From the NCBI GenBank assembly GCA_000252525.1, contig JH611156.1, forward strand, positions 578,109 through 642,108: a DNA stretch of 64,000 bases. Reading direction: 5' to 3'. The notes beneath the pieces are model-generated. The model had not been told where the DNA came from. It did not search any database and worked only from the letters and a program-made list of their open reading frames with translations. This document shows, piece after piece, positions 13,876 to 63,711 of this stretch. The translations under genes and the position numbers were made by a program. The stretch comes from SAR86 cluster bacterium SAR86A. GTDB taxonomy: Bacteria; Pseudomonadota; Gammaproteobacteria; Magnimaribacterales; D2472. Numbering within the stretch: the stretch's first letter is position 1; the number at the start of each line of letters is the position of its first letter.

Positions 13876-14808
13876 TTAATTTAAAACCTCTTCTTTTGGA
13901 CCGATGTGATTTGTATTTCTTTTTTTTGCAAGTTCCACTTGTTTTTGTCTACTTTTGTATCTTTCTTTTTGTTTATCGCTTGTTGTTTTGTAGCATTTTG
14001 GACATGCAACGCCTTTAACATATTGCTTAGATTGTTTTTCAAATCTTGATAAAGGCATTCTGCAACCATGACACATATCATAAGATCCTTCTTTTAAGTT
14101 ATGCTTTAAAGAAACTCTGTCATCAAAGACAAAACATTCTCCATTCCAAAGCGATTTCTCAGCGGGAATGTTCTCAAGATATTTTAATATGCCACCCTTG
14201 AGGTGGTAAACATTTTCGAATCCTCTCATTTTCATTAAAGATGAAGCCTTTTCACATCGAATACCGCCAGTACAGAACATTGCAATTTTTTTATTTTTTC
14301 TTTCTTCATCAGAAAAATTTTGATTTTTTATCCATTCAGGAAAATCACTAAATTTATCTGTCTTGGGATTAATTGCATTTTTGAAAGTTCCTATAGAGCA
14401 TTCATAGTTATTTCTGGTATCAATGACAATTGTATCCTTGTCTTTAATGAGATCGTTCCAATCTTCAGGCATTACATATTCACCAACATCTTCATTAGGA
14501 TTTATTGACTGGTCTCCAATGGTGACTATTTCTTTTTTTAGCTTAACTTTAAGTCGAACAAATGGCTTTTTTTGTGATTGAGAGTATTTTAAATCAAGTT
14601 TCTTAAAGCCTTTGATAGACTCAATAAAGCTTACTGCTGAAGATAAATTCTCTGGATTATTTGAAGAAATAGTACCGTTGATACCCTCATGACTAATAAG
14701 AATGGTTCCATAAATATTTAAATATTTAAGCCTAGACTTTAATCTTTTTTGTAAATCAGTTGGGTTAGCAACATTAACAAATTTATACAGAGCTACAATT
14801 TCATTCAT
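13876..14808 (-). CDS. trhO: Rhodanese-domain tRNA U34 hydroxylase TrhO (YceA/UPF0176)
   Basis: 310 aa; rhodanese active-site loop CTGGIRCEK; C-terminal CHGC...CPKC pairs. Confidence 0.8.
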   Translation of the reverse strand: MNEIVALYKFVNVANPTDLQKRLKSRLKYLNIYGTILISHEGINGTISSNNPENLSSAVSFIESIKGFKKLDLKYSQSQKKPFVRLKVKLKKEIVTIGDQSINPNEDVGEYVMPEDWNDLIKDKDTIVIDTRNNYECSIGTFKNAINPKTDKFSDFPEWIKNQNFSDEERKNKKIAMFCTGGIRCEKASSLMKMRGFENVYHLKGGILKYLENIPAEKSLWNGECFVFDDRVSLKHNLKEGSYDMCHGCRMPLSRFEKQSKQYVKGVACPKCYKTTSDKQKERYKSRQKQVELAKKRNTNHIGPKEEVLN

Positions 14809-16615
14809 TATTAAAAAAGTTCTTTAAATATGCAGAATTAATTCTATTTTCTTCAGCAGCTATCACTTCGAATTGAGAGTTTTTTTTATTTTCTAGCAAA
14901 ATACAATATCCTTTATTTTTATTATTGTTAATAAATTTATTTATGAAAATCTTTTCACATTTATCAAGCCATATAAAATTAACATTTTTATTCAACCTAT
15001 TAACTTTATTGCTGAGGGGATTTGCATAATAAAAATCAAACATTATTTGGTCTACTTCATTAGATGAATTAAGCACTATAAGAGCAGGAAAATTTATATA
15101 CCTGTTTCCAAAAAATATTTTAAGCTGATCAATTGAAATACTAAATCCTTGATCAATCTTTGGGAAAGACCATAGCTCCAAGATTTTTCTTTTATTAGCG
15201 TCTATCACTTCATTAATATTTAAATCTAAAGACAAACTCTCATTAGTAATCAAATTTCTTCCCAGCCCTAAGCCATTAGTGTTTGCACCTAAAAAACTCA
15301 TTACAGTAGGTCCAATATCAAAAGAATTTCCAATATCATTAATTAACTGTGGTTTTGCATCTTTATCGAAAATCATAAAAAGATTTGATCTATTTGCATT
15401 TTTAAGAACTTCTGATGCAGTATTCTTAAGTGCTAGATGATCAGATAATAGAACAAGGGTCGTATTGTTGTAGATTTCAGAATTCAAAAATTTTTCCATG
15501 AACTTTCCAATAAGTTCATCTACACAATGAATAGAATTTAAAATAGAGTTTGTTCCATCACCGTATATCTTATTTTCACAAGATGCTGATATATAACCAT
15601 TTGGATGATGAGTGTCTAATGTTAATGCAAACAAACCAAAATTTTCATTAGCTTTAGATAGGATTTCAATGCGGTCATACACTATATCTAATAGTTCATC
15701 ATCATATACTCCCCATGGAGATCTATAATTTTTATCCTTTATCTTGTTTTGAAGTTCATACCATCCCTCTACAGAATCAAAATTATGAGTTTTGTAAAAA
15801 TTTCCTTTTCCAGCAAAGTCTAAGTCAGAACCTCCTATGTAATGTAATTTATAACTCTCCTCATTCAGTATATCTCCCATGCAATTCGCTAGTGGTAAAA
15901 ATTTATCCATTCCTGACATAGAATTTTCACTTGCTATTGGCGTTAAAAGCGGAACACCGCATTGAGTAGCTGCCATGCCTGCAATTGTCCAATTAGTTGC
16001 TCTTGGTGAATCAATATTTGTAAAACTTATAGATTGTTTTTCCAATGTTTTTAGATTCGGTAAAAGATTTGGGAAAAGGTCCTCGTTGAGATATGTTCTT
16101 TCTATTTGTTCTAAATAAATAAATACTATATTTTTTCTAGTATCACTAAAAATAATATCTTGTTCATAAAAAGAATTTTTATCTACTTGATAATTATTTG
16201 ATCTGTCAGATAAAAGCTCATAGATATCTTTATAAAATGGATTAAAAATAATAGATAAAACAAGAATTGTTAAAGAAAGAGTTCTATTTGTTATTAGTTT
16301 GCTTTTTTGATCAGTCAGATTTCTTAAAAATATTCTTGAGGAACTAAAAGCAATTAAGTTAAAAAATATAAATATTATAGAAGGAATAATGTATTCATTA
16401 ACTCCAAATCCATTGATTCCGAATTTAACATGGAAAATTATTGCATCATTAATGCCATCTCCTGATAAAAAATTGAATAAAACATAAACGGTTAACAAAA
16501 AATAATTAAGATAAAAAGTAATTAATATTACATACTTTTTGAGCTTGCTATCAGATTGTAAAATTCCTTTTAAAAGAAAAAAGCTGACCAAAATTAGTAG
16601 TAAAGATAAGTACAT
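14801..16615 (-). CDS. Membrane-anchored sulfatase-like hydrolase/transferase (LTA-synthase / MdoB-OpgB family)
   Basis: 604 aa; about 5 N-terminal TM helices followed by an alkaline-phosphatase-superfamily domain (TNWTIAGMAATQCG, LLSDHL). Confidence 0.65.
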   Translation of the reverse strand: MYLSLLLILVSFFLLKGILQSDSKLKKYVILITFYLNYFLLTVYVLFNFLSGDGINDAIIFHVKFGINGFGVNEYIIPSIIFIFFNLIAFSSSRIFLRNLTDQKSKLITNRTLSLTILVLSIIFNPFYKDIYELLSDRSNNYQVDKNSFYEQDIIFSDTRKNIVFIYLEQIERTYLNEDLFPNLLPNLKTLEKQSISFTNIDSPRATNWTIAGMAATQCGVPLLTPIASENSMSGMDKFLPLANCMGDILNEESYKLHYIGGSDLDFAGKGNFYKTHNFDSVEGWYELQNKIKDKNYRSPWGVYDDELLDIVYDRIEILSKANENFGLFALTLDTHHPNGYISASCENKIYGDGTNSILNSIHCVDELIGKFMEKFLNSEIYNNTTLVLLSDHLALKNTASEVLKNANRSNLFMIFDKDAKPQLINDIGNSFDIGPTVMSFLGANTNGLGLGRNLITNESLSLDLNINEVIDANKRKILELWSFPKIDQGFSISIDQLKIFFGNRYINFPALIVLNSSNEVDQIMFDFYYANPLSNKVNRLNKNVNFIWLDKCEKIFINKFINNNKNKGYCILLENKKNSQFEVIAAEENRINSAYLKNFFNNE

Positions 16616-24701: not shown

Positions 24702-25136
24702 TTCTGAGAATATTTTATTTAGCTCGTCTTTAGTTTGAGGTCTAAAAAGTGATAAAGCCAACTCCCCATTAGGATTTATAAAAAAAGTTGCTGGCACTGC
24801 AGGTGGCGTTGAGATCCCCCATATATCTCTAGGATGTGAAATCAAAGAAGGTACTTCTATATTGAATTTTTTAGCGACTGGTTTTAGATCATCTATATCA
24901 AGCTCATCAAAATTGAATGTGTAAACAATCAAATCAGCATTTTCATCTGCAAACTCATTTAATTCAGGTATTTCCTTTATACAAGGCGCACACCAATCAG
25001 CCCAGTAATTTATTACAACCCAGTTGCCATTTAATCTATCAAGATTAGTATTGGGTCCGTTAAATACTTCAATATCATATTTTTGACATCCAACAAGAAT
25101 CATCAAACATAAAAGTTGTATAATCGTTCTTTTCAT
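24684..25136 (-). CDS. TlpA/ResA-like thiol:disulfide oxidoreductase lipoprotein
   Basis: WCAPC active site and lipobox ILVGC. Start at MKRTIIQ (25136) is preferred; an ATG at 25145 is also possible. Confidence 0.8.
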   Translation of the reverse strand: MKRTIIQLLCLMILVGCQKYDIEVFNGPNTNLDRLNGNWVVINYWADWCAPCIKEIPELNEFADENADLIVYTFNFDELDIDDLKPVAKKFNIEVPSLISHPRDIWGISTPPAVPATFFINPNGELALSLFRPQTKDELNKIFSELKESF

Positions 25137-25172
25137 CGCGTACATGATATAAACATTAATATAAAAGTAAAT

Positions 25173-25769
25173 ATGGATGATAAATTTTTATTAGTTTTAT
25201 TTTATTCTGCTTCAGGGTCTGTAAAAAATTTGGCGCACGCTATCAGCGATGGCGCTGAAGAACATGGTCTAAAAGTAAAAATAAGAACAGTACCAAAAGT
25301 CTCTTCAAATACTGAAAAAACTGAGCCTGATATTCCTGATTCAGGAGAAATTTATTGCACCAAAGAAGATCTTATTAATTCAAGTGGCATTGCAATAGGA
25401 TCACCAACAAGGTTTGGATCTATGGCTGCACCTCTAAAATATTTTCTTGATACAACTGGAGATCTTTGGGCGACGAATGCCCTTGAAAACAAACCAGGTC
25501 TTGCTTTTACCTCTACTGGTTCAATGCATGGCGGACAAGAAGTAACGCTATTTAATATTCTTACATTTATGTTGCATCATGGAATGATTATTCTTGGAAC
25601 ACCTTATTCATTGTCTCAATTAAATAAAACAAAGTCTGGTGGTACACCATATGGACCATCGCATGTTGAAAGTTTTAATTCCTCAAATGAACTTACTTTA
25701 GATGAGTATGAAATTGCAAAACAATGCGGTCAAAGACTTGCTAAGCTTATTTTAAAAGTAAGTGAATAG
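25173..25769 (+). CDS. wrbA: NAD(P)H:quinone oxidoreductase WrbA (flavodoxin-like)
   Basis: Start at MDDKFLLVLFYSASGS; flavodoxin-like fold motifs (GSPTRFGSMAAPLK). Confidence 0.85.
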   Translation: MDDKFLLVLFYSASGSVKNLAHAISDGAEEHGLKVKIRTVPKVSSNTEKTEPDIPDSGEIYCTKEDLINSSGIAIGSPTRFGSMAAPLKYFLDTTGDLWATNALENKPGLAFTSTGSMHGGQEVTLFNILTFMLHHGMIILGTPYSLSQLNKTKSGGTPYGPSHVESFNSSNELTLDEYEIAKQCGQRLAKLILKVSE

Positions 25770-51797: not shown

Positions 51798-52301
51798 ATG
51801 AATACCGATTTAATAAAATATATTACATTTTTTAGTTTGTTTATTGTTTGTATTAATATTAATGGGAAAATTATGCTTGATGAAAATGACAAATTAGTGT
51901 CACCCCTACCAAAACCTTATGATGGTTTAGTATATTCTGTCGACGACCTGAAGTCTTTTATCGTCTCTACTGTGAAATCAAACAAACAACCAATTATTAT
52001 ATTTGGTGCAAACTGGTGTCCTGACTGCAGAATATTTTCTGGAACAATGGACATACCAAAAATTAAATCATACATAGATGATCATTTTGCAATCTTGTAC
52101 ATAGATGTAAAAAGATATGAAATAAACATGCAGTTAATGGAAGAATTTGGAATTCCATCTGCAGAGGGGATTCCAAGAGTTTTAGTATTTGATAAAAGAA
52201 TGAATCTTATAAATAATTCAAATACAACTGAATGGAGAACTGCTAGGGAACGATCAAGTCAAGAAATTTTTGATTTCTTTCAAAACATGACTACTAATTA
52301 A
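51798..52301 (+). CDS. Secreted thioredoxin-fold protein
   Basis: 167 aa with a signal peptide and WCPDC active site. Confidence 0.7.
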   Translation: MNTDLIKYITFFSLFIVCININGKIMLDENDKLVSPLPKPYDGLVYSVDDLKSFIVSTVKSNKQPIIIFGANWCPDCRIFSGTMDIPKIKSYIDDHFAILYIDVKRYEINMQLMEEFGIPSAEGIPRVLVFDKRMNLINNSNTTEWRTARERSSQEIFDFFQNMTTN

Positions 52302-53568
52302 ATTGTCTACTTGCACTTGCAAATATTAGATAAAAAATTCCACCAAAAATTAAAACAAAGGAGCATATGTAAAAAATTGAGCTCCATGAATTAGTTATCT
52401 CAAGAATAAATCCTGCAACTATAGGTGCAAGAATTGCAGCAATCATTCCGATGCTTCCTGCAATTCCAACTAACGAACCAGTATATTTTGGACCAAGGTC
52501 TGCATGATTTACTCCAAATCCACCAGCACAAATACCTGAACAAATGTTAATTAAGCAGAGCAAAATTACAGCATTTAAGAGAGAGTCCTCAAAAGAAATT
52601 AAATATAAGAAAAATGCAGATCCAAAAAATCCTATTGAATTGACAGTTTTTCTAACCTTGATAACTTCATAACCTTTTTTAATTAAGTTATCAGCCAGAA
52701 AGCCTCCCAATATCAGCGCAATCATTGCGACTAAACACGGAATTACAATTGAATATATAAATGCATTTGAGCCTAAATCTATTCCCATACCGCCTTGAGA
52801 GACAGGAGCGTTAACATATTTTGGTAAATAAGATAAAAATGTGTAAAGAGACCAATTATTACAAAATGTAGCAACAGTGATTGCCATAAATGGCTTATTT
52901 TGTATAAGTTTGAGAAATGGTATCGATGAAGCAGAAGTTTTTGCAGGTGCCTCTGATTGTATTAATTCTAATTCGTTTTTAGATAAATTTTTATTGCTTT
53001 CAGGAAAAGATGTAACAGTTGTGTTCCAAAAAAAATACCAAAAAAAGCCTAAAGCTCCAAAGGTATAAAACACCCATTCCCATGAATAATTGGCTATGAT
53101 TAAGGCAGCAACTGCATATCCAAACAAAGTTCCAGCAGCAATTCCGCTATTTGTGAAACCTACAGCTCTAGTCCTTTCTTTAAAAGGTATCCATCTTGCA
53201 TATATAGCATGCCATGATGGGAAAGTTACGCCCTCTCCAAGCCCCATTAATATTCGAATTAAAATCAGCCACCACAATCCTTGATATGAGAAAAAAGGAG
53301 TAATTATTGTAAAAAATGACCATATTAATAGAGCATATCCGAGAACTTTTTTACCGCCATATCTGTCTGCTAAATATCCTCCAACTATCATAGTAATCAT
53401 ATATCCAAAGTAAAAAGATCCTAAAATAATTCCAACTTGAGATTCAGACCAGCCAAATTGCTCTTGCATTGGAATTATTGCTACAGAAATGTTTACTCTA
53501 TCGATGTAACAGATAAATACAGCTAAAAATGATAAAAAGATAATCTTAAATCGGTATGGAATAATCAT
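52294..53568 (-). CDS. MFS transporter, anion:cation symporter (ACS/SLC17-like) family
   Basis: 424 aa, 12 TM; N-terminal DRVNISVAI and GGYLADRYGGKK motifs. Start overlaps the P450 stop (ATGA). Confidence 0.8.
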   Translation of the reverse strand: MIIPYRFKIIFLSFLAVFICYIDRVNISVAIIPMQEQFGWSESQVGIILGSFYFGYMITMIVGGYLADRYGGKKVLGYALLIWSFFTIITPFFSYQGLWWLILIRILMGLGEGVTFPSWHAIYARWIPFKERTRAVGFTNSGIAAGTLFGYAVAALIIANYSWEWVFYTFGALGFFWYFFWNTTVTSFPESNKNLSKNELELIQSEAPAKTSASSIPFLKLIQNKPFMAITVATFCNNWSLYTFLSYLPKYVNAPVSQGGMGIDLGSNAFIYSIVIPCLVAMIALILGGFLADNLIKKGYEVIKVRKTVNSIGFFGSAFFLYLISFEDSLLNAVILLCLINICSGICAGGFGVNHADLGPKYTGSLVGIAGSIGMIAAILAPIVAGFILEITNSWSSIFYICSFVLIFGGIFYLIFASASRQFN

Positions 53569-54950
53569 TCAGGAGTAAATTTTATTGGCATCTCTTGAAT
53601 TGCATGTACAAAATTATTTGGTGCTACTTTCCAGTCACCATTCACTTCAAAATCACTAAAACGAGTCAAAAACTGTTTATAAAACTCTCTTAATTGCATC
53701 AATGCAACAGGCTTGCCTAAGCAAGTATGTCTTCCAATACCAAATGCTAAGTGTTTTTCAGCATTTTCTCTGAGAATATCAAACTTGTCTGGATCTTTGA
53801 AAATTTCTGGATCTCTGTTAGCAGCTCCATACCACAAAGAAATTTTTTCGTATGGGCCTATCATCTGTCCATTTATTTCAGTTTCCTCTAAAGATGTTCT
53901 TCGCATATGGATAACCGGTGATACACATCTTACAGTTTCATTTATAAAGTTTGGTAAGAGCTCATAATTCTCTAATAAAATTTCTTTTTGTTTTGGGTTG
54001 TCATGAAGTAACTTAATTCCGCCACTCATAGTATTTCGAGTTGTATCATTTCCTGCAAAAATTATTAGCAGCCAAGAACCATCAAGAAATTCATCTGAGA
54101 GTTGTTGACCTTCGATTTCTGCATTGGCAATTGCACTCAACAAATCGTCGGATGGATTTTCTCTTTTATTTTTTAAAATGAATCTCCCATATTCAAACAT
54201 TTCGTCAACCATTGCATTAAACATATCAACCATTGCTGGATCTGGTGTACTGTCAGTTTTTCCTTCGTTCTGTTCTTTTATCATTTCATAGGTAAAGTAT
54301 TGAGCCAATTCTAGAAATTCCATCCAAGAAACAAGTTTTTGCCTATCTGCTTCTGGTATGCCAAGGATCTCTGATAACGTAAATATTGGTAATTGCTGAG
54401 AGACTTGCTGTACTAGATTGCATTCACCCATAGGAGCGATGACATCTAATAATTCGCCAACTTTAACAGACACTTTTTTTTGTAATTCATCTACGTAACC
54501 AGATTTAAAAAATGGCATGTGTTCCTTACGAAGCCCAAGATGCATTTCTCCATCTAAATTTAGCATATGGTCGATGGTAGATTTAAAAAGTTTTGGGTGT
54601 CTATTTTCTTCAGTGCCTAAAGTTAATAAATTTCCAGTAGAGTATTGTGAGGAGAAGATCTTAGGATTCATAGATACATGTTTTATGTCGTTATATGAAG
54701 TTAAGACCCAGTAACCAGGCTCAGGATCTGTTGGCATTGGGTCATGGAAGAATACTGGAGATTTCTCTCTAAGTTCTTTATATAAACTAATTGGTTGTCC
54801 TTTAGTAAATAAGTCAAGGTCGTTCAAAGAGCCTGAAGGCTTATGAGGATATGAAATATTGTGTTTTGGATGATTAATCTTATTACTTAAAATTTCATCA
54901 GATAATATGTATCCTGGGTTTGGATTAGTCACCTCCACCTCCTCCAGCAT
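53565..54950 (-). CDS. Cytochrome P450 monooxygenase (I-helix resembles the CYP153/CYP125 omega-hydroxylase type)
   Basis: Heme loop FGIGRHTCLG, I-helix AGNDTTRN, ExxR (ETVR). Start is ambiguous: ATG at 54950, or GTG at 54932 which has AGGAGG-N5. The tracked TTG at 55031 is unlikely. Confidence 0.9.
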   Translation of the reverse strand: MLEEVEVTNPNPGYILSDEILSNKINHPKHNISYPHKPSGSLNDLDLFTKGQPISLYKELREKSPVFFHDPMPTDPEPGYWVLTSYNDIKHVSMNPKIFSSQYSTGNLLTLGTEENRHPKLFKSTIDHMLNLDGEMHLGLRKEHMPFFKSGYVDELQKKVSVKVGELLDVIAPMGECNLVQQVSQQLPIFTLSEILGIPEADRQKLVSWMEFLELAQYFTYEMIKEQNEGKTDSTPDPAMVDMFNAMVDEMFEYGRFILKNKRENPSDDLLSAIANAEIEGQQLSDEFLDGSWLLIIFAGNDTTRNTMSGGIKLLHDNPKQKEILLENYELLPNFINETVRCVSPVIHMRRTSLEETEINGQMIGPYEKISLWYGAANRDPEIFKDPDKFDILRENAEKHLAFGIGRHTCLGKPVALMQLREFYKQFLTRFSDFEVNGDWKVAPNNFVHAIQEMPIKFTPE

Positions 54951-55548
54951 CTCCACCTGCAACTGTTCCATCTGAGGAAGGATTTGGATGAGTAAGATAT
55001 ATGCTAGACATAAACGCTGTACCGTCTCCAAGAGCTGCAGTTATTTCTTTGAGATTTAGTTTTTCACCCAAATCAGAGTAAGGCTGCACATCTCCAGAGT
55101 CTTTATCTACAATAAGTGCATCTTTTTTTGATACTAAAATAATATCTCCAGAAATTATTACTAAGAAGTATTGATTAAAATTGAACATAGATTTTTTGAA
55201 TCTTTTTCGAAATTTAATCTTGCCAGTCTTCCATGACATTTTTGATATTTCTCTTGAGGAAGAAAGAAAGTACATGTATCCATCATGTGAACTTGGTATA
55301 AATGGAATCATTGAGCTATGAAGATAATCTTGATAATGAGACCATAAAAAATCTCCATTATCACTTTTAAAACAATGAACCATTTTAGAGCTCCATGACG
55401 AGCTAAAAACAATAATATAATCTTCGAATTGTCCTATGATGTTTGGCTTGTAACCTGGAGAAATGTCTCCAACCCATACTGGTTTATTTTTAACTAGGTC
55501 GTATTTTGCAATAGATCCTTTTTTGCCAAAAATTGCTACTTTATCCAT
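54925..55548 (-). CDS. Hypothetical cytoplasmic protein with PQQ/BamB-like beta-propeller-type repeats and a Gly-rich C-terminal tail
   Basis: 207 aa; no signal peptide. A motif recurs four times at about 40-50 aa spacing (YDLVKNKPVW, FKSDNGDFLW, MSWKTGKIKF, VDKDSGDVQP). Tail is AGGDAGGGGGD. Confidence 0.55.
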   Translation of the reverse strand: MDKVAIFGKKGSIAKYDLVKNKPVWVGDISPGYKPNIIGQFEDYIIVFSSSWSSKMVHCFKSDNGDFLWSHYQDYLHSSMIPFIPSSHDGYMYFLSSSREISKMSWKTGKIKFRKRFKKSMFNFNQYFLVIISGDIILVSKKDALIVDKDSGDVQPYSDLGEKLNLKEITAALGDGTAFMSSIYLTHPNPSSDGTVAGGDAGGGGGD

Positions 55549-55565
55549 GAGTGCAATTATATATG

Positions 55566-55602
55566 TTTCAGATATGAGGAGTCGAACTCCTCATATCTGA
55601 AA
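55566..55602 (-). terminator. Perfect 17-bp hairpin between the TBDR gene and the downstream genes (partial terminator or RNA-stabilising stem)
   Basis: TTTCAGATATGAGGAGT-CGA-ACTCCTCATATCTGAAA. No strong T-tract follows on the minus strand. Confidence 0.5.
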
Positions 55603-55607
55603 TAAAA

Positions 55608-57983
55608 TTAGAAGCTATAGGTATATCTCAGCGCTATAGTTCTTGGAGGTATCCACTGCATCCAGTTTCTTGGTCTCCATGATGTGTCATCAACTGCATA
55701 AATATATGCCTCAGTTCTCTTATCAGTTAAGTTATCTATTGATAGTTGAAGCATAGAATTTTCACTCAAGTCTAATCCTAGATTAAAGTTTAGCTTAGTA
55801 TAATCAGGTGAACTTGAATTAGGATTCTCAGCAAAAGTATTAAAGCTATCTCCGTAGTAATTTACGTCCAGTCTTGCATATGTAGGATATGACATTATGG
55901 TCGTGTCATAGACAAGACCAAGATTCCACTGGGTTTCTACAGTATTTGGAAGTCTATCTCCAGCAGAAGCACCTAGAGAATCAATATCAATTGAAGTTTC
56001 TGCAGTCATAGAGCTTCCTGCAAAATCTAAGGAAACTGAATCATTAATAGCGTAAGTAAAGTCGACCTCCCAACCAGAAGTCTCTGCTTTACCTCCATTA
56101 AAGTTATATCTCCAACCACAACCAGGTGTGACTTGGATTATTATTCCGTCCCAATCAACATCAAAATAAGTAACATTAGCCGTATAGTTTTCACCTCTAG
56201 CTTTTACTCCGAATTCAGTTGTCTCAGCCTCATCAGAATTGAATCTTCTTGAGAAGTTTGCTTGTGCTGCTTCATCACTGCTACAGAATGGAGGAAGTGG
56301 TGCCTGATTTCCACCAGGTCTATACCCTGCTGCTTGAGTTGCATACAAGGTCAAGTCCTCGTTTACTAAATAACTAACAGCATATTTCATTCTAGTATCA
56401 GACTCTGAACCAGATAATTCAGCACAGTCAGTTCCTGCCGGATCAGTACCGTCACAGCCAGTGCTATCCATATAAAAAATACCGTATTGATATGTTTTTG
56501 ATGCATCTTCAATTTCATAATCTCTAATGCCTAATGTAAGCGTTAATTTGTCATTTACGTTGTAGTCAAACTGACCATAAAGAGATGTCTCTTCTTGCTC
56601 ATTAAATTCAGTATATGAAGCATAATACAAGTAAGGATAGCCTAAATGATCCGAACAAAATGGTGGACAATATGCTGTAGCATCATAAACAGCCGGATCA
56701 ACTCCAGCAGCAATCGAAGTAACATAATCTAGCCAATATGCATCGACTGCATATTGAGTTTGTGAAATTGAATTAGGTTGTTCCTCAAATTTATAGTTAT
56801 AGTAACCAATAGTCCACTCAAATTTTCCAGGTTTTGAAACTAGTCTCAATTCTGTAGTATCTTCATAATATTTGTCACCATCCACAATAAGCGGTGCAGG
56901 AACATAATCATCCATATCAATTCTAGCCCAGTCAGTCACAGCATCTTCTTCTACTGTTCTATCAGAGATAATTAAATTTGCATCGAAAGCACCAAAATCA
57001 TATTTAATATTTGCTATTAGTGTTTCTCTTGTAATATCTTCAGACTCATCTGCTGCTAAAGCATGAGCATATTTTGGGTCATAGTTTGTAAGTACCGAGC
57101 TTCCATTAGGATAATCAGCTTCAGTTGCTGCAAATCCCGATATCGCACTCAAACGCGAACATGTTGGATCACCGTCCCAGTTATACCACCAACTTGATGC
57201 TTGAGGACAGCCTTCAACATAAACGTCAGCACTACCAGGCTTGCTCTGACCTGGTTCTAAAATACCATATGCTTTGTTATTAAAATTAACATACCTCAAA
57301 CTTCCAGTTAATTTGCCCCCATTATTGAATCCTAGTGTGATCATAAGTTGAGAATCATCTTCTTCACCAACAGTATTGCCTGTCTGAATATTTTTATAGA
57401 TACCTGGAGAAACAAGCTGCGAATATACAGCTCTAACAGCAAGACTGTCAGTTAGAGGCATGTTGTACATCATTTCGATGCTAGTCTCAGGATCATTAGC
57501 TTTAACTTTATCACCATAACCAAGCCTAATTTTTCCATAAGCTGCGCTTGAATCTGGTTTATTAGTTATGTATCTGATTGTTCCACCAATAGCATTAGAT
57601 CCATAGAGTGTGCCCTGTGGCCCTCTAAGTACTTCAATTCTTTCAATATCAAATAAACTCATTAGTGAGCCGTTTATTTCATCAATATAAGTAGAAGAAG
57701 TTCCTGATGATCTTTGCGAAGTAGATGTATTTAGCCCCCTGAAAGTATAGTAATTTGATCCGCCAGGTGTCGACACACCAGCAATTGATCGCAAATAGTC
57801 TTCAGGATTAGTTATACCTCTCTCTTCTATTGTAGCTTCTGTAATTACAGATATGTTCATAGGTATTTCTTGAACAGTTTCAGCTTTCTTATTTGCAGTA
57901 ACAATCACTTCTTCAACTTCTTGAGAAATCAAGACGAATGGAGCCAAAATTAGTGCGCATAAAATTGTCTTCAAATTTTTCAT
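55608..57983 (-). CDS. TonB-dependent outer-membrane receptor
   Basis: 791 aa; signal peptide, TonB box/plug (EEVIVTANKK...IPMNISVIT), C-terminal beta-barrel ending RYTYSF. Confidence 0.92.
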   Translation of the reverse strand: MKNLKTILCALILAPFVLISQEVEEVIVTANKKAETVQEIPMNISVITEATIEERGITNPEDYLRSIAGVSTPGGSNYYTFRGLNTSTSQRSSGTSSTYIDEINGSLMSLFDIERIEVLRGPQGTLYGSNAIGGTIRYITNKPDSSAAYGKIRLGYGDKVKANDPETSIEMMYNMPLTDSLAVRAVYSQLVSPGIYKNIQTGNTVGEEDDSQLMITLGFNNGGKLTGSLRYVNFNNKAYGILEPGQSKPGSADVYVEGCPQASSWWYNWDGDPTCSRLSAISGFAATEADYPNGSSVLTNYDPKYAHALAADESEDITRETLIANIKYDFGAFDANLIISDRTVEEDAVTDWARIDMDDYVPAPLIVDGDKYYEDTTELRLVSKPGKFEWTIGYYNYKFEEQPNSISQTQYAVDAYWLDYVTSIAAGVDPAVYDATAYCPPFCSDHLGYPYLYYASYTEFNEQEETSLYGQFDYNVNDKLTLTLGIRDYEIEDASKTYQYGIFYMDSTGCDGTDPAGTDCAELSGSESDTRMKYAVSYLVNEDLTLYATQAAGYRPGGNQAPLPPFCSSDEAAQANFSRRFNSDEAETTEFGVKARGENYTANVTYFDVDWDGIIIQVTPGCGWRYNFNGGKAETSGWEVDFTYAINDSVSLDFAGSSMTAETSIDIDSLGASAGDRLPNTVETQWNLGLVYDTTIMSYPTYARLDVNYYGDSFNTFAENPNSSSPDYTKLNFNLGLDLSENSMLQLSIDNLTDKRTEAYIYAVDDTSWRPRNWMQWIPPRTIALRYTYSF

Positions 57984-57998
57984 AATTTATATCCTCTC

Positions 57999-58025
57999 AA
58001 ACAAAAAACCCAGCAAAAGCTGGGT
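57999..58025 (-). terminator. Intrinsic terminator inside the TBDR leader (attenuator)
   Basis: Minus strand ACCCAGC-UUUU-GCUGGGU followed by UUUUUUGUUU. Ends about 15 nt before the TBDR SD and ATG. Confidence 0.75.
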
Positions 58026-58032
58026 CAATTCA

Positions 58033-58075
58033 ATAAAAGCAGGTCCCAGCTATGCTGCTACTCCCCGGCTTTTAT
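58033..58075 (-). promoter_or_regulatory. GC-rich 43-nt structured element (candidate aptamer/antiterminator) in the TBDR leader
   Basis: A perfect 8-bp closing helix AUAAAAGC/GCUUUUAU encloses CGGGGAGUAGCAGCAUAGCUGGGACCU. The internal AGCUGGG can alternatively pair with the terminator 5' arm CCCAGCU. Confidence 0.45.
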
Positions 58076-58089
58076 GTAAGTTAATTTTT

Positions 58090-58117
58090 AACATACTTAA
58101 GTGAGTATATATGTAAA
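58090..58117 (-). promoter_or_regulatory. Candidate sigma-70 promoter for the TBDR operon
   Basis: Minus strand TTTACA-N16-TATGTT. Confidence 0.3.
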
Positions 58118-58172
58118 AAAGAATTAAACTAGTAATTTAAGAAAAAAAGTATCTATTTTTTATATCCAATAT

Positions 58173-58257
58173 TGGTAGGGATGGAGGGAGTCGAACCCCC
58201 ACGCCTTGCGGCACTTGGTTCTAAGCCAAGCGTGTCTACCAGTTCCACCACATCCCC
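58173..58257 (-). tRNA. tRNA-Leu (anticodon UAG), class II with long variable arm
   Basis: 85 nt; acceptor GGGGATG/CATCCCT, anticodon loop CTTAGAA, variable arm TGCCGCAAGGCGT, encoded CCA. Confidence 0.9.
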
Positions 58258-59661: not shown

Positions 59662-60774
59662 ATGAATTTAGACTTTTCAGATGATCAAAAGTTCCTTCAA
59701 GAGGAAGCTAGAAAGTTCCTAGAGAAAGAAAATGCACTTTCTCGCAACAGGTCTGTTTTAGAAAATAATGCAAATGTTGATGTTGAGCTTTGGAACAAAA
59801 TTGTTGAATTGGGATGGACAGGTATTAGAATCCCTGAAGAATATAGTGGATTAGGTCTTGGCCATTTAGAGCTTTGTGTAATTGCTGAAGAATTAGGGAG
59901 ATTTTTAGCACCTGTGCCATTTTCATCATCAGTTTATTTATTTACTGAGGCCATAATTAATTATGCTAATGACGATATTAAAAAAGAAATACTGCCTAAA
60001 CTAGTGTCAGGCGAAGTTATAGGAACACTTGCAGTTGCTGAAGATTTACAGGCTCCTACTGCTGAAAATATTACATTACAAAGTGATAACAATATTTTAA
60101 ATGGAAAAAAGATAGCTGTACCTGATGCCGAAATTGCTACGCATGCAATTGTGGTTGCAAAAACATCTTCAGGGATCTCTCTTCAGCTTGTTGACCTAAA
60201 TGCTGAAGGTGTAAAAATCGAAAAACAAGAAAATATTGATGAGAGCAGAGGTTATTTTTCTATCTTATTTGAAAATTCTCCAAGCAAATTGATAGGTGAT
60301 GAAACTGGCGGCTGGGACTTATATGAAGCTTTGATGAATCAAGCTGCCGTATTGTTTGGTTATGAACAAATAGGTGGATCTCAAGCAGCCTTAGATATGG
60401 CTATTAATTATTCTAAAGAGAGGTATGCGTTTGGAAGACAAATAGGATCATTTCAAGCAATAAAACATAAACTAGCTGATATGTATATTGCCTTAACACT
60501 TGCAAAATCTAATTGTTATTACGCTGCATGGGCGCTTTCGACTAACTCAGCTGACTTACCTTCGGCGTCTGCTACAGCTAGAGTAAGCGCAACAAAAGCA
60601 TATCAACTCTGCTCAAAAGAAAATATTCAAACTCATGGTGGTAATGGTTTTACATGGGAATATGATTGTCATATGTTCTATAGGCGATCAAAACTATTAT
60701 CTTTAAATATAGGCTCACTAAGTAACTGGAGAGAAAAACTGGTTACCAGCCTTGAACAATCAAATATTAATTAG
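59662..60774 (+). CDS. Acyl-CoA dehydrogenase family protein lacking both catalytic-base positions (beta-like subunit)
   Basis: 370 aa ACAD fold (HGGNGFTWEY). Where MCAD has YEGT this protein has LNIGS, and where IVD has LERL it has MNQAAV, so no catalytic Glu is present. Confidence 0.8.
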   Translation: MNLDFSDDQKFLQEEARKFLEKENALSRNRSVLENNANVDVELWNKIVELGWTGIRIPEEYSGLGLGHLELCVIAEELGRFLAPVPFSSSVYLFTEAIINYANDDIKKEILPKLVSGEVIGTLAVAEDLQAPTAENITLQSDNNILNGKKIAVPDAEIATHAIVVAKTSSGISLQLVDLNAEGVKIEKQENIDESRGYFSILFENSPSKLIGDETGGWDLYEALMNQAAVLFGYEQIGGSQAALDMAINYSKERYAFGRQIGSFQAIKHKLADMYIALTLAKSNCYYAAWALSTNSADLPSASATARVSATKAYQLCSKENIQTHGGNGFTWEYDCHMFYRRSKLLSLNIGSLSNWREKLVTSLEQSNIN

Positions 60775-60782
60775 GAAAAATT

Positions 60783-62003
60783 ATGGATTTTAACGACACC
60801 CCCGAACAAGCTAAATTTAGAAAAACATGTAGAGATTGGCTAGAAAAAAATGCACAGCTTAAAGATAGTTCACCATCTGAGTCTAATTTCGCTAACAAAG
60901 ACATAATTAAAGAAGCGAAAGCATGGCAAAAAAAGAAATATGATGCAGGTTGGGCCATGCTCCACTGGCCTAAAGAATATGGAGGTATTGGCGCATCTCC
61001 AATAGAAAGAATTATTTGGGCTAATGAAGAATCAAAGTTCAATGTACCAAAAGGTATTTTTGAAATTGGGTTAGGTATGTGCGGACCAGTAATGATGCAG
61101 TATGCTTCTGAGGAACAAAAAGAAAGATACTTACCTCCGATGGCTGAGGGTAAGGAAATTTGGTGTCAATTATTCTCAGAACCTTCAGCTGGATCTGACG
61201 TTGCTGGCCTAAGAAGTAAAGCAGTTCAAGATGGGGATAAATGGATAATAAATGGTCAAAAAGTTTGGACATCTGGTGCACACTTCTCTGATTATGGAAT
61301 TCTTGTAGTTAGGCATGATCCAAATCTTGAAAAGCACAAAGGTTTAACATTCTTTTTTGTTGATATGAAATCTCCAGGAATTGAAGTAAAGCCAATAAAA
61401 CAAATTACAGGTGGATCAAGTTTTAATGAGGTTTATTTCACAGATGTAGAAATACCTGATTCACAAAGACTTGGAGAAATTGGTGACGGCTGGAAAGTGG
61501 CGATTACAACCCTTATGAATGAAAGGTTGGCTGTTGGAGACGCGGATGGATGTGATGTTGAGGATGCATTCAAATGGGCTAAAACACAAGATAATCAGGG
61601 TGAACCCCTCCTTAATGATAAAGCTGCAAGAGAATCTATTGCTGATTGGTACTGCGAAGCAAGTGGACTTAAAAATACTAAACTCAGAACAATGTCTGCT
61701 TTATCAAAAGGCGATACACCAGGACCAGAAGCATCTATTACAAAAATCGTTAGTGCTGGAAAACTTCAAGATATAGGAAATTTTGGAATTGATTCAATGG
61801 ATATGACTGGTATGTTAAAAACTGATGATCCAGATATAAGAAGATTCCAAAATGCATGGCTTGGTGCTCCCGGACTAAGAATTGCTGGTGGAACTGATGA
61901 AATTCTGAGAAATATTATTGCTGAGAGAGTTTTGGGCCTTCCACAAGATCCTAGGGCAGACAAAGGAGTTGCATACAAAGATATTCCATCAGGAAAGTCT
62001 TAA
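60783..62003 (+). CDS. Acyl-CoA dehydrogenase family protein with IVD-type catalytic Glu (alpha-like subunit)
   Basis: 406 aa; CQLFSEPSAGSDVAG, WTSGAHFSD, MNERLAVG (Glu at the IVD/LCAD position) and IAGGTDEILRN motifs. Confidence 0.85.
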   Translation: MDFNDTPEQAKFRKTCRDWLEKNAQLKDSSPSESNFANKDIIKEAKAWQKKKYDAGWAMLHWPKEYGGIGASPIERIIWANEESKFNVPKGIFEIGLGMCGPVMMQYASEEQKERYLPPMAEGKEIWCQLFSEPSAGSDVAGLRSKAVQDGDKWIINGQKVWTSGAHFSDYGILVVRHDPNLEKHKGLTFFFVDMKSPGIEVKPIKQITGGSSFNEVYFTDVEIPDSQRLGEIGDGWKVAITTLMNERLAVGDADGCDVEDAFKWAKTQDNQGEPLLNDKAARESIADWYCEASGLKNTKLRTMSALSKGDTPGPEASITKIVSAGKLQDIGNFGIDSMDMTGMLKTDDPDIRRFQNAWLGAPGLRIAGGTDEILRNIIAERVLGLPQDPRADKGVAYKDIPSGKS

Positions 62004-62004
62004 G

Positions 62005-63711
62005 TTATCTAAAAATAGCTAGGAATTTAAGAAATTCTGTATTGCCTCCTTGCACAACTATTTCTCCAGATGAAATAGATGAAACAGGGTTTTTTAGTCC
62101 AGTAAGAACTCTTTTTAATTCAATTTCTTGTGTTAGTACCTCTAGATCACAATTATTTTGCGCTTCATTAGAGATAACAGCAACACCATTCCTAAGAGTA
62201 ATACTTCTTACTAATCCTGAACTAAAATTAAAGCATACCTTGTATAGAGACCCATCATGATCTTCAGGGTTAAACCTTACGGAAAGAACATTAAATAGGG
62301 TGTCAATCGATAAATTATTTAAAAAGGTGTCATCAATATTCATTAAATTAGTCAGCTCAAATTCATCATTAAGCTCTAAGGCAGATGATAAAAAATAATT
62401 CCTTTTGTTTGGATTGGAAGATTTAGCACCTTCATGTATAAGTGCTTTTTGTCTCAAAGTTTTAACCTCTGAATTAAAGAGGTCTAGCGAAATAAGATAA
62501 TCACTTAATTCAAGAGCCCATTGCATATCTTCTTTATCCACAGCTAGTCTAAGCTCTTTTATCAATTCATTTTCTCCGCCAGCTAATTTTGATATCCTTT
62601 TTGCTTTCTCTTTTCTTGATAAAGGATCTAATTCAGCGGGATTTCCATTAAACCATCCTAAATATCCATTAAATATGCTTTTCACGGACCACCTAACTGT
62701 TCCATAGAATTCGTATAAAAAAGGAGAGCTTGACAGGTTTTGAGGTAACTCTATCATTTCAGATATTTCATCAGGATAATAACCTGCATTCATAAGTCTA
62801 ATTGTTTGATCGTGAATATATTGGATTGCATCTCTGTATGTAATAAAAATATTGTTTATTTCATTTTTTCCAATAACAGGTCTTGTATGACTGGGAAATA
62901 AATATTCAGGATAAAATGATTTCATTAGGTCAAGACTTTCTATCCATCCTGTTACGTCGCGATGCGTGGTGCCTCTAATGGTATATAGATTAGGGAACGT
63001 TTTATAAATATTATCTCCAGGCATGAGCGATTTATGTTTCGGAAGCCACACAAATATTTGATCATTTGTTTCTCCTGGAGCATGATAAAGTTCAATTTCA
63101 ATACCTGAAATTGTAATTTTTAATTCATCACTAAATGTAAGGTCTGGTTTTACATAACCATTTGGAGATTTTGAGACATTTAAACGGGGCCCTATTCCAA
63201 CATTTATGAGCTCTTCTTCTGGTAAAAAAGTTCCAAACATTCTCGCACTTCTTTGAGTGATGATTGGGTTTAAAATCCCAATAATTCTTTGAACGTAATA
63301 ATCAGTATCCTCATGAGCAATTATTTGAGGTTTATAATCTTGTATATCTAAATAATAAGCAGCACCAAAGGTATGATCACCATGATTATGGGTGTAAATG
63401 ATTGCTTTGACAGGATTTGAATTCTTTTTTCTAAATAGTTCATATATTTTTTCAGCATCATATCTACTATCAGCAGCATCAATGATGATATTCCCATCTT
63501 GACCCTCTACCATGATTGAATTTGCAATACCAAAACCAATAGCAAAATGAATTTTTCCACCAGGGGTATCAAATGTAATTACCTCTTGGTTAAATTCATC
63601 TGAATGTTTTATGAGTTTTTCTACTTCAGATGTAGTTGGAACATTAAACTCAAGGTTTTCTTTTGAGCAGGAAGTTAATATTAAAAAAGTTAATATTGCG
63701 TATTTATACAA
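62005..63711 (-). CDS. Alkyl/aryl-sulfatase lipoprotein (MBL-fold, SdsA1/BDS1/YjcS family)
   Basis: 568 aa; lipobox LILTSC, MBL motif HNHGDH, dimerisation-domain motif GYLGWFNGNPAELDPL, SCP2-like C-terminus. Confidence 0.8.
   Translation of the reverse strand: MYKYAILTFLILTSCSKENLEFNVPTTSEVEKLIKHSDEFNQEVITFDTPGGKIHFAIGFGIANSIMVEGQDGNIIIDAADSRYDAEKIYELFRKKNSNPVKAIIYTHNHGDHTFGAAYYLDIQDYKPQIIAHEDTDYYVQRIIGILNPIITQRSARMFGTFLPEEELINVGIGPRLNVSKSPNGYVKPDLTFSDELKITISGIEIELYHAPGETNDQIFVWLPKHKSLMPGDNIYKTFPNLYTIRGTTHRDVTGWIESLDLMKSFYPEYLFPSHTRPVIGKNEINNIFITYRDAIQYIHDQTIRLMNAGYYPDEISEMIELPQNLSSSPFLYEFYGTVRWSVKSIFNGYLGWFNGNPAELDPLSRKEKAKRISKLAGGENELIKELRLAVDKEDMQWALELSDYLISLDLFNSEVKTLRQKALIHEGAKSSNPNKRNYFLSSALELNDEFELTNLMNIDDTFLNNLSIDTLFNVLSVRFNPEDHDGSLYKVCFNFSSGLVRSITLRNGVAVISNEAQNNCDLEVLTQEIELKRVLTGLKNPVSSISSGEIVVQGGNTEFLKFLAIFR

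Follow-up and report, generated by a model that had tools for sequence, protein, structure and literature searches.

The stretch of DNA examined here, called the window, comprises 64,000 nt of SAR86 cluster bacterium SAR86A (GCA_000252525.1, contig JH611156.1, positions 578,109-642,108 of the forward strand), a member of the SAR86 group (Magnimaribacterales). Between positions 52294 and 58257 it carries a tRNA-Leu, a short leader, and genes for a TonB-dependent receptor (TBDR), an orphan protein, a cytochrome P450, and a transporter of the major facilitator superfamily (MFS). This region is probably a mosaic in a hypervariable slot behind tRNA-Leu(UAG), in which an arginine sensor precedes the TBDR gene and no dedicated P450 operon exists. 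Three kinds of element most likely make it up, namely a frame (tRNA-Leu and MFS), an arginine-attenuated TBDR, and a variable cassette (orphan and P450). SAR86 bacteria account for several percent of surface-ocean bacteria, possess many TBDRs, and are patchily auxotrophic for methionine, histidine, and arginine.

A preceding annotation of the window made from its letters alone, referred to below as the sequence-only reading, had assigned all these elements to a single P450-centred operon spanning two membranes. Its inventory was accurate. Every element it had listed was found where it had been placed, on the minus strand throughout, and the gene identities were right: TBDR, propeller-like orphan, P450 of the CYP125/CYP153 clan, and MFS resembling the anion:cation symporter (ACS)/SLC17 type. 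The leader, too, had been correctly taken for an attenuator; it comprises an upstream open reading frame (uORF), an antiterminator strand, and an intrinsic terminator. The operon into which these parts had been assembled did not hold.

An arginine-type attenuator in front of the TBDR gene

The comparison drew on genome loci picked by P450 similarity and on a set of metagenome contigs; L numbers denote loci or contigs of these sets. The spacer between tRNA-Leu and the TBDR gene measures 189 nt and ends in a canonical intrinsic terminator. Roughly 130 nt upstream of TBDR accompany its orthologues whether a tRNA, the orphan gene, a GH16 gene, or another ORF precedes.

In the direction of transcription, a -10-like box of the leader promoter (TATACT, 58104-58109, minus strand) stands 9 nt upstream of the ATG of a conserved 14-codon uORF (58050-58094, minus strand), which encodes the leader peptide MLKINLHKSRGVAA and ends in a stop codon. 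Boxes of the TATACT type are kept in TBDR and argF leaders, always 6-9 nt before the ATG, and L096 has TTTACA ~17 nt before the box. With this spacing the uORF would be leaderless or near-leaderless. Its length varies from 14 to 16 codons, and in 23 of 23 distinct leaders it ends at the same TAG, which belongs to an invariant TAGCTGG; the start is ATG in 19 leaders by script and in L005 by hand, and GTG in three. Across 20 aligned leaders the frame of the uORF contains no stop, compared to 29 and 41 stops in the other two frames, and a 6-nt indel among the aligned leaders preserves the frame. Since the chance expectation of such a uORF is also low (~2% per sequence), we infer that it is translated.

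The proposed sensing codon is the Arg codon CGG (58065-58067, minus strand), which is invariant in the alignment and always 12 nt before the stop; among all leaders L137 differs in this spacing. CGG occurs in nearly all argF and TBDR leaders, the divergent argF leaders L086, L092, L115, and L145 using other Arg codons, and it is the rarest Arg codon in the genes of the window (3 of 680 Arg codons, 0.44%).

The uORF stop overlaps the antiterminator strand AGCUGGG (58045-58051, minus strand), a second copy of the terminator's 3' arm that can pair with the complementary 5' arm, CCCAGC. The 5-bp core of this helix pairs in 20 of 20 leaders, with G-U pairs where the terminator arm has changed. The terminator, found by a terminator scan (58002-58026, minus strand), is composed of GACCCAGC, a UUUU loop, GCUGGGUU, and a U-run; it lies 23 nt before the TBDR ATG and directly precedes the ribosome-binding site of the gene (57992-57998). 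In the aligned leaders 98.7% of its cells are paired, with one compensatory change from C-G to U-A. A covariance model of the leader matched solely before TBDR or argF, and no Rfam family matched the leader at E values up to 1. With all these predicted parts, the leader represents an arginine-type transcription attenuator that works through a leader peptide.

Other assignments were considered and dropped. Neither an Rfam match nor anything aptamer-like was found that would indicate a riboswitch, RNAalifold showing the terminator as the sole conserved structure. The terminator does not belong to tRNA-Leu, as none is present where other genes follow the tRNA (L005, L011, L017, L018, and L051) and the hairpin travels with TBDR. 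A macrolide-type '+x+' stalling motif in the leader peptide was abandoned once the associations with argF and dapB described below appeared.

In the proposed mechanism, transcription would start a few bases before the 14-codon uORF. With Arg-tRNA(CCG) charged, the ribosome would reach the stop and cover AGCUGGG, so that the terminator forms and TBDR stays off. With Arg-tRNA scarce, the ribosome would stall at the rare CGG, 12 nt upstream of the stop, and leave AGCUGGG free to pair with CCCAGC; the terminator would be pre-empted and TBDR transcribed, possibly together with the genes behind it. Stalling of this kind would explain the strictly conserved 12-nt spacing between CGG and stop. TBDR transcription is probably gated by the charging of a minor Arg-tRNA and induced by arginine starvation. 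The TBDR itself may import an arginine source; it would be an importer switched on by arginine starvation in a bacterium that is probably auxotrophic for arginine.

The leader in front of arginine operons

A covariance model (R1) built from TBDR leaders gave one further match among the genome loci, in L051, directly before an arginine operon. This operon, argF-argG-argA/B-argC-argH, encodes ornithine carbamoyltransferase, argininosuccinate synthase, N-acetylglutamate synthase/kinase, N-acetyl-gamma-glutamyl-phosphate reductase, and argininosuccinate lyase, and its leader peptide is MNNLSLQNRRGTAL. An exact-pattern scan of metagenomes listed at least 80 loci, among which the gene after the leader was argF in 44, a TBDR of the window type in 16, and dapB in 4. 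The argF leader peptides include MINTNTRLRRVPAI and MNNYLTQERRVSAL, and the Arg leaders carry AGA CGG. The dapB leader peptide is rich in lysine (MKILRNNKAKLKPAI) and is followed by a 221-aa dihydrodipicolinate reductase (DapB; PDB 1vm6, 3.5e-19). A match between codon and pathway, Arg for the arg genes and Lys for dapB, is what classically marks ribosome-mediated attenuation and points to this mechanism.

The dapB attenuators were located in L079, L107, L134 (leader at 4239-4377, ORF at 4375-5040), and L148, and they have the same TAGCTGGG/CCCAGC/GCTGGG module as the Arg leader. SAR86-type marine genomes seem to share a minimal attenuator family in which the sensing codons are exchangeable.

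The arginine operon occupies the same place as the cassette of the window. In metagenome contigs with enough flanking sequence, its left neighbours are those of the window, namely two acyl-CoA dehydrogenase (ACAD) genes (ACAD-b and ACAD-a), ORF212, DUF4345, and tRNA-Leu. On the right the same MFS (65-75% identity) follows straight after argH (L076 and L096). The slot in these related SAR86 genomes accordingly reads tRNA-Leu, leader, argF-argG-argA/B-argC-argH, MFS. Five contigs have an orthologous TBDR (71-85% identity) between the tRNA and the arg leader; in loci of this arg type a plain promoter, TTGCAG-N17-TATAAT, precedes the TBDR, and an attenuator is missing. Mixed forms also occur: L051, L073, and L100 show P450, leader, and arg operon in this order (with the MFS after argH in L051), and L077 shows orphan, leader, and argF without an adjacent P450. 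In L136 (8522-10339), tRNA-Leu, TBDR, and an Arg leader are followed by a fusion remnant of argF (residues 1-62) and argH (residues 333-422) and by the MFS (65-75% identity). This contig appears to have had its arg operon deleted in place and would represent an intermediate toward arginine auxotrophy.

From the tRNA as far as the opening codons of the downstream gene (ATGAAAAAT), the leader of the window shows homology to its arg counterpart in L096. No arg genes are present in the window slot, and the arg-type leader stands directly before TBDR. SAR86A was described as lacking arginine synthesis and SAR86B as carrying the genes in otherwise syntenic contigs, with much of the natural SAR86 population auxotrophic for arginine (Dupont et al., 2012, PMC3358033). 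By its gene content the window fits the SAR86 type that lacks the arg operon, and the slot appears to be the site of the polymorphism between arginine prototrophs and auxotrophs. A more tentative extension is that SAR86 bacteria which had deleted the operon may have kept its Arg attenuator and re-used it to switch on TBDR, and possibly orphan, P450, and MFS, at low levels of Arg-tRNA.

Alternatively, the TBDR leader could be a non-sensing relic of the lost arg operon, acting as a promoter with a terminator that leaks or as insulation against transcripts reading through from the tRNA, and the TBDR would be unrelated to arginine. The orthologous TBDR of arg-containing relatives, with its plain promoter, would suit such a relic, as would the loss of the first Arg codon, AGA, from many TBDR leaders. 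A decaying relic should show disruptions, however, and the surrounding positions have diverged up to about half, whereas start codon, open frame, stop position, and terminator are kept in 23 genome and 16 metagenome TBDR leaders among the matches listed, and CGG at the 12-nt spacing in all of them except L137. We consider a relic quite unlikely.

A variable slot behind tRNA-Leu

tRNA-Leu(UAG) (tag; 58173-58257, minus strand; ARAGORN, Rfam tRNA 57.9 bits) had been counted as an operon member and turned out to be the fixed left border of the slot. The tRNA marks this border in 36 loci, as it does in those arg-type metagenome contigs that were checked, and the content downstream of it varies. The single-operon reading is likewise not supported by the promoter and arginine-type attenuator that TBDR has of its own.

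Relatives found through the P450 are SAR86-type (titled SAR86 or unclassified marine metagenome-assembled genomes) in 63 of 65 species-representative genome loci, and the closest is the single-amplified genome AH-321-O14 (98%). The window proteins were mapped onto 64 species-level loci with a P450 orthologue. In 25 of these the P450 is solitary, in unrelated contexts with neighbours such as peptidase M16, DUF2237, and beta-lactamase (seen in distant clades); in the other 39 it lies in a slot that starts with tRNA-Leu(UAG) and ends with the MFS and a convergent thioredoxin-like gene. The slot shows at least 13 orders among these 39 loci. With L for leader, T for TBDR, T2 for a TBDR paralogue (50% identical), O for orphan, P for P450, G for GH16, M for MFS, and E for a PEMT-like methyltransferase, the order of the window itself, L-T-O-P-M, was found in 6-7 loci. 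G-L-T-O-P-M and O-L-T-P-M were found in three loci each, L-T-G-P-M in about six, and L-T-O-P-G-M in one locus and four Tara contigs. L-T-P-M, O-P-M, P-M, G-P-M, O-E-P-M-T2, and P-L-arg operon-M were also seen among the 39.

Conservation of gene order was the refutation test that the sequence-only reading had named beforehand, and the order was not conserved among the 64 species-level loci. The four genes do not form a conserved unit, given the 25 solitary P450s and the many arrangements of the remaining loci. Tight packing had been a further argument. The overlaps are indeed present: the P450 start overlaps the orphan gene by 8 nt (GTG at 54932) or 26 nt (ATG at 54950), and the P450 stop and MFS start have ATGA in common. 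They do not rise above the background: the genome has a G+C of 32%, and across the window the coding share is 95.6%, the median gap between co-directional neighbours is 5.5 nt, and 12 of 38 such pairs overlap. Gene overlap being the background state here, it is weak evidence of a functional link.

A single dedicated operon, in which TBDR, orphan, P450, and MFS together import and hydroxylate an organic anion or lipid (e.g., a sterol, an isoprenoid acid, or a fatty acid) with the orphan as P450 accessory, is in our view unlikely. The genes are co-directional and overlapping, the gap between TBDR and orphan shrinks to 18 nt in L001-type loci, and P450 and MFS are adjacent in 37 of the 39 slot loci, with a second clade showing orphan, PEMT, P450, and MFS followed by a different TBDR. 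The P450 clan hydroxylates terminal methyls of lipids and sterols, ACADs resembling ChsE4/5 are nearby, and the edc cluster discussed below is a precedent for TBDR and P450 with neither ferredoxin (Fd) nor ferredoxin reductase (FdR). Against such an operon, TBDR is missing from L010, L017, L018, and L062 and the orphan from about 10 slot loci, the orphan precedes an arg leader without an adjacent P450 in L077, and TBDR and MFS flank the arginine operon in contigs showing no P450. Furthermore, the arginine-type attenuator governs TBDR, the overlaps are the norm of this genome, the ACAD pair belongs to the frame and is found in arg-type loci too, and the orphan, with one cysteine and no cofactor motif, is no redox partner. 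The adjacency of P450 and MFS as a conserved functional core was weakened in the same way, since the MFS also follows argH in contigs showing no P450.

TBDR and GH16 could also be a pair for uptake of beta-glucan (laminarin type), with P450, MFS, and orphan as unrelated neighbours. A GH16 protein (Pfam 1.3e-12, N-terminal signal sequence) is encoded directly before or after TBDR in about 10 species loci. The window, however, has no GH16, and elsewhere it takes three positions, including one between P450 and MFS, and precedes the arg leader without a TBDR in L120, L121, and L142. The pair would also leave the arginine-type attenuator unexplained, and we regard it as improbable.

Several points weigh against the mosaic with an arginine sensor favoured here. 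Arginine sensing by the leader is deduced from comparative logic, and the arginine auxotrophy of the SAR86A genome is probable, as judged from synteny and from the earlier genome description (Dupont et al., 2012, PMC3358033). Both antiterminator strands are nearly invariant, and no covariation was found between them in the 20 leaders. Where AGA has been lost, TBDR leaders are left with K-x-R, and several keep just one Arg codon. The metagenome scan, with its at least 80 loci, required the exact terminator sequence, and its counts are biased. Orphan, P450, MFS, and a TBDR recur in two orders, T-O-P-M and O-PEMT-P-M-T2, which leaves room for a real functional link, and in L001-type loci the gap of just 18 nt between TBDR and orphan would allow one attenuator-controlled transcript.

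Some observations concern the slot itself. Directly after tRNA-Leu, the O-E-P-M-T2 clade has a gene for a fusion of DNA methylase and HNH endonuclease (L019, 5034-6449); it is the only mobile-looking element in any version of the slot. One SAR86 clade has a 147-aa membrane methyltransferase of the PEMT/ICMT family between orphan and P450 (L019, 7545-7988; L032, 148-591), which hints at a lipid-like or carboxyl substrate in that clade. In L005 (6634-6740), L011 (3631-3725), L017 (7891-8005), and L051 (7886-8000), the orphan, GH16, or P450 gene starts 7-26 nt after the 3' end of tRNA-Leu without a terminator between them, implying co-transcription of mRNA and tRNA. In one public gene call (P0214), the tRNA has been translated as part of the orphan, extending it at the N-terminus.

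The TBDR and its junction with the orphan gene

The TBDR (791 aa; 55608-57983, minus strand) has Pfam Plug (3e-19) and barrel (2.6e-26) domains. A signal-like N-terminus (MKNLKTILCALILAPFVLIS) and a TonB-box-like EEVIVTA were read from the sequence, and these features place it in the family. No NCBIfam model, substrate-specific ones included, reached its cutoff for this protein, and the PDB matches covered the plug only and included no informative close relative.

The 59-nt spacer between TBDR and orphan houses a perfect 17-bp hairpin without a U-tract (55566-55602, minus strand; -26.4 kcal/mol, z -5.9). Its core, GAGTTCGACTCC, resembles the T-arm/T-loop of the neighbouring tRNA-Leu and has an acceptor-like tail (window 55543-55602). 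Homologous spacers before the orphan gene (L012, 7355-7412; L013, 7333-7390; L027, 7295-7352) align with the 3' half of tRNA-Leu, with GGGAGTTCGACTCCCTaCATCaCC..CCA in the spacer and GGGGGTTCGACTCCCTCCATCCCTACCA in the tRNA. The hairpin probably represents a degenerated duplicate of the tRNA 3' end, which would make it an att-like recombination scar. Elsewhere among the genomes, about 10 nt separate the real tRNA from the start of the orphan gene. The simplest reading, which is suggestive only, would be that leader and TBDR were inserted between tRNA and orphan and that the degenerate tRNA end was left behind.

A TATAAT box (55556-55561, minus strand), 7 nt before the orphan ATG and returned by the scan as TCGACT-18-TATAAT, is a candidate promoter for orphan, P450, and MFS. 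The sequence ATATATAATTG is kept 5-7 nt before the orphan ATG in most relatives with a TBDR-orphan spacer. The box may give the three genes a separate promoter of the leaderless type, a suggestive reading only; they would probably be co-transcribed, either from this box or by read-through.

The start codons of the uORF and of the orphan gene lie 7-9 nt downstream of a -10-like box without a Shine-Dalgarno sequence (58104-58094 and 55561-55548), and the arg and dapB leaders show that spacing too. This arrangement suggests that leaderless mRNAs may be in regular use in the SAR86 lineage.

The orphan half-propeller

The orphan protein (207 aa; 54925-55548, minus strand) was characterized by an AlphaFold2 model and homology searches. 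The model is confident and all-beta (pLDDT 78, pTM 0.72); its 16 strands make up roughly four blades of four strands each, and it also has a helix at the C-terminus and an acidic, Gly-rich tail that is disordered. The best Foldseek match was BamB (E 5.5e-8, TM 0.47 over half of the eight-bladed target), and Pfam PQQ_2 scored 19.7 bits, below its cutoff of 27.6. The family numbers 154 homologues, and all named hits and all loci carrying it are from SAR86 or marine metagenomes. No signal peptide was found in the orphan or in 28 aligned homologues. As modelled, the protein is a cytoplasmic half-propeller of four blades of the PQQ/BamB type. The name BamB, used in some sources, was rejected given about four instead of eight blades, the missing signal peptide, and the PQQ_2 score below cutoff. 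A role as redox partner was likewise dismissed, as the protein has one cysteine, no cofactor motif, and an all-beta propeller fold.

The cytochrome P450

The P450 gene (53565-54932, minus strand; Pfam p450 PF00067, 1.1e-25) encodes 455 aa from a GTG at 54932, which is preceded by GGAGG; an alternative ATG is located at 54950. The translation shows the I-helix FAGNDTTRN, the ExxR motif (ETVR), and the heme loop FGIGRHTCLG. Thousands of close relatives occur in marine metagenomes. Outside SAR86, the closest relatives in species genomes are from Caulobacterales (46-48% identity; L065, 8001-9347; L066, 8001-9320), and in Caulobacter ginsengisoli the gene adjoins one for an enoyl-CoA hydratase.

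Best PDB matches were CYP125MRCA, the reconstructed CYP125 ancestor (256 bits), the CYP153-like 6hqw (201), CYP268A2 (188), CYP153A7 (184), and a second CYP153-like protein (183); P450terp, CYP126, CYP142, and CYP124 also matched. Natural CYP125 chains scored 155-161 bits, below 6hqw, CYP268A2, and CYP153A7. The resemblance of the I-helix that had been noted in the sequence-only reading was borne out, AGNDTTRN of the window aligning with AGNETTRN of the CYP125 ancestor. Members of one P450 family have at least 40% amino-acid identity. At 35.6% identity to CYP125MRCA (142 of 399 aligned residues), the window P450 is not demonstrably a CYP125; placement in the CYP125/CYP153 clan stood, membership in CYP125 did not. 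By its matches and motifs, the enzyme belongs to the CYP125/CYP153/CYP124 terminal-hydroxylase clan. A CYP236-type 6-O-methyl-galactose demethylase, an idea raised by the GH16 gene beside the P450 in relatives, was discarded, as 60 of the 60 best PDB matches were CYP125, CYP153, CYP268, CYP108, CYP124, CYP142, and similar proteins. Homologues annotated as cyp125 have been reported for most Magnimaribacteraceae (Freel et al., 2024, PMC11582366), and each SAR86 genome has at least one P450 (Dupont et al., 2012, PMC3358033).

Pfam annotation covered window ORFs of at least 90 aa, by direct scan or through precomputed hits on identical or syntenic orthologous contigs, and a scan for cysteine motifs covered ORFs of at least 50 aa. 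In agreement with the sequence-only reading, no redox partner for the P450 (ferredoxin, flavodoxin, or ferredoxin reductase) was found by these scans in the 64-kb window. A motif scan, with Pfam on selected neighbours, also revealed no ferredoxin or reductase next to the P450 among the flanking ORFs inspected in the loci of nine relatives. The one small flavoprotein encoded in the 64 kb belongs to the FMN_red family (PF03358, NADPH-dependent FMN reductase; 25116-25769, plus strand); its gene adjoins a DUF2069 gene, at a distance of 28 kb from the P450, and it does not represent a canonical partner. Judged by its sequence type, the P450 is a soluble class I-type enzyme that must receive its electrons from partners encoded elsewhere. 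Most bacterial P450 genes, those for mycobacterial CYP125 included, stand without adjacent redox partners. The same is true of EdcA of Novosphingobium tardaugens (PMC7793797). As adjacent partners are commonly missing, their absence from the window is unremarkable.

Frame genes and other genes of the window

The MFS gene at the right end of the slot (52294-53568, minus strand; 424 aa, MFS_1 4e-59) is a frame gene and encodes an SLC17-like transporter. Against models of the TC 2.A.1.14 type it scored 274 bits (TIGR00894, cutoff 626) and 218 bits (TIGR00893, cutoff 395), in both cases below the curated cutoffs, and matched sialin (1.3e-73), VGLUT2 (5e-58), and DgoT (1e-37) in the PDB. By analogy with these proteins it could, speculatively, carry an acidic or N-acyl amino acid.

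Left of the slot, an ACAD gene pair (59662-60774 and 60783-62003, plus strand) is part of the frame and not of the cassette. Subunit by subunit, its best PDB matches were Tcur3481/Tcur3483 (6wy8/6wy9) and ChsE4-ChsE5 (4x28), heterotetramers acting on steroid side chains. The pair is 4.6 kb from the P450 and adjoins slots of the arg type as well as of the P450 type. It was set aside as an argument that the P450 acts in sterol catabolism, being a frame gene beside every version of the slot. No mce genes were detected by Pfam within the 64 kb. The neighbours of the P450 give no reliable clue to its substrate.

Elsewhere in the window, an SdsA-type alkyl sulfatase (62005-63711, minus strand; Lactamase_B, Alkyl_sulf_dimr, and Alkyl_sulf_C) and a separate protein of the Sulfatase family (14801-16615, minus strand) are encoded. 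Both are consistent with the use of sulfolipids and sulfate esters proposed for SAR86.

Implications

If the proposed regulation is true, a biosynthetic sensor has been re-wired to an uptake system in an auxotroph, and the leader singles out a receptor that would supply arginine or an arginine-rich compound to an abundant surface-ocean bacterium. The TBDR is a candidate importer for the arginine source of auxotrophic SAR86, and the leader gives a regulatory signal readable in metatranscriptomes. The P450 'operon', in turn, would be ordinary and partly accidental, and its P450 forms an uncharacterised family within the clan of terminal hydroxylases. Where the genes of a streamlined genome are tightly packed, a P450 'operon' deduced from the packing needs to be regarded with care, as it can be an accidental mosaic.

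Comparison with known systems

tRNA-linked genomic islands and islets resemble the window slot in having a fixed tRNA border and variable content among close relatives, and the probable degenerate copy of the tRNA 3' end inside the slot would be a further likeness. The slot differs in that its cassettes consist of one to five ordinary metabolic genes. No integrase was found in the window by the Pfam scans.

The P450 shares with CYP125, CYP142, CYP124, and CYP153 its best matches, the I-helix AGNDTTRN, the heme loop, and a soluble class I architecture. In contrast to CYP125, no mce4, igr, or kstR context was seen around it, and unlike the CYP153 enzymes of class I three-component operons, it adjoins no ferredoxin or ferredoxin reductase (none in the 64 kb).

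The combination of TBDR and P450 had been thought undescribed. A precedent is the edc cluster for estrogen degradation in N. tardaugens, which combines the P450 EdcA with the TBDR EdcT, implicated in substrate uptake, and has no Fd/FdR (PMC7793797). The edc genes are co-induced by their substrate, with genetic support (PMC7793797), whereas the linkage of TBDR and P450 in the window is not conserved, its TBDR has an arginine-type attenuator, and its P450 belongs to a different family.

The sequence-only reading had also seen in the region the logic of carbohydrate utilization loci centred on a TBDR (CUT loci and PULs). A TBDR near an inner-membrane MFS, to which relatives add a secreted GH16, is a real likeness. 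The comparison fails in that SusD, a dedicated regulator, and a conserved set of enzymes are all missing, and in relatives TBDR and MFS bracket a biosynthetic operon. SAR86 TBDR loci with varying enzyme sets were noted in 2012.

A leader that responds to arginine has also been reported for Salmonella speF: its leader ORF orf34 is described with mRNA conformations that depend on arginine codons, so that alternative mRNA structures let an upstream element tie the expression of a downstream gene to the arginine supply (PMC6386406). It differs in its target, ornithine decarboxylase, in its unrelated sequence, and in its enteric host.

A close likeness is to the classical amino-acid attenuators of Gammaproteobacteria (trpL, hisL, pheL, leuL, thrL, and the ilv leaders). 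As in these, a short uORF contains codons of the regulated amino acid, its stop lies beside the antiterminator strand, and an intrinsic terminator stands just before the first structural gene; the leaders of SAR86 relatives before argF (Arg codons) and dapB (Lys codons) conform to the same scheme. Unlike the classical leaders, that of SAR86 would be specific for arginine; it relies on one or two Arg codons, including the very rare CGG, instead of a codon run, and has a minimal two-helix design with an apparently leaderless uORF and no Rfam model. In the window it precedes an outer-membrane TBDR and not a biosynthetic gene. In the literature searched, neither a leader peptide for an arginine operon nor any SAR86 attenuator was found described, and likewise no attenuator acting on a TBDR. 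Leader-peptide attenuation is classical, and clusters of TBDR and P450 without redox partners are known; what stands out is the apparent co-option of an arginine attenuator for an outer-membrane receptor where an arginine operon was probably lost.

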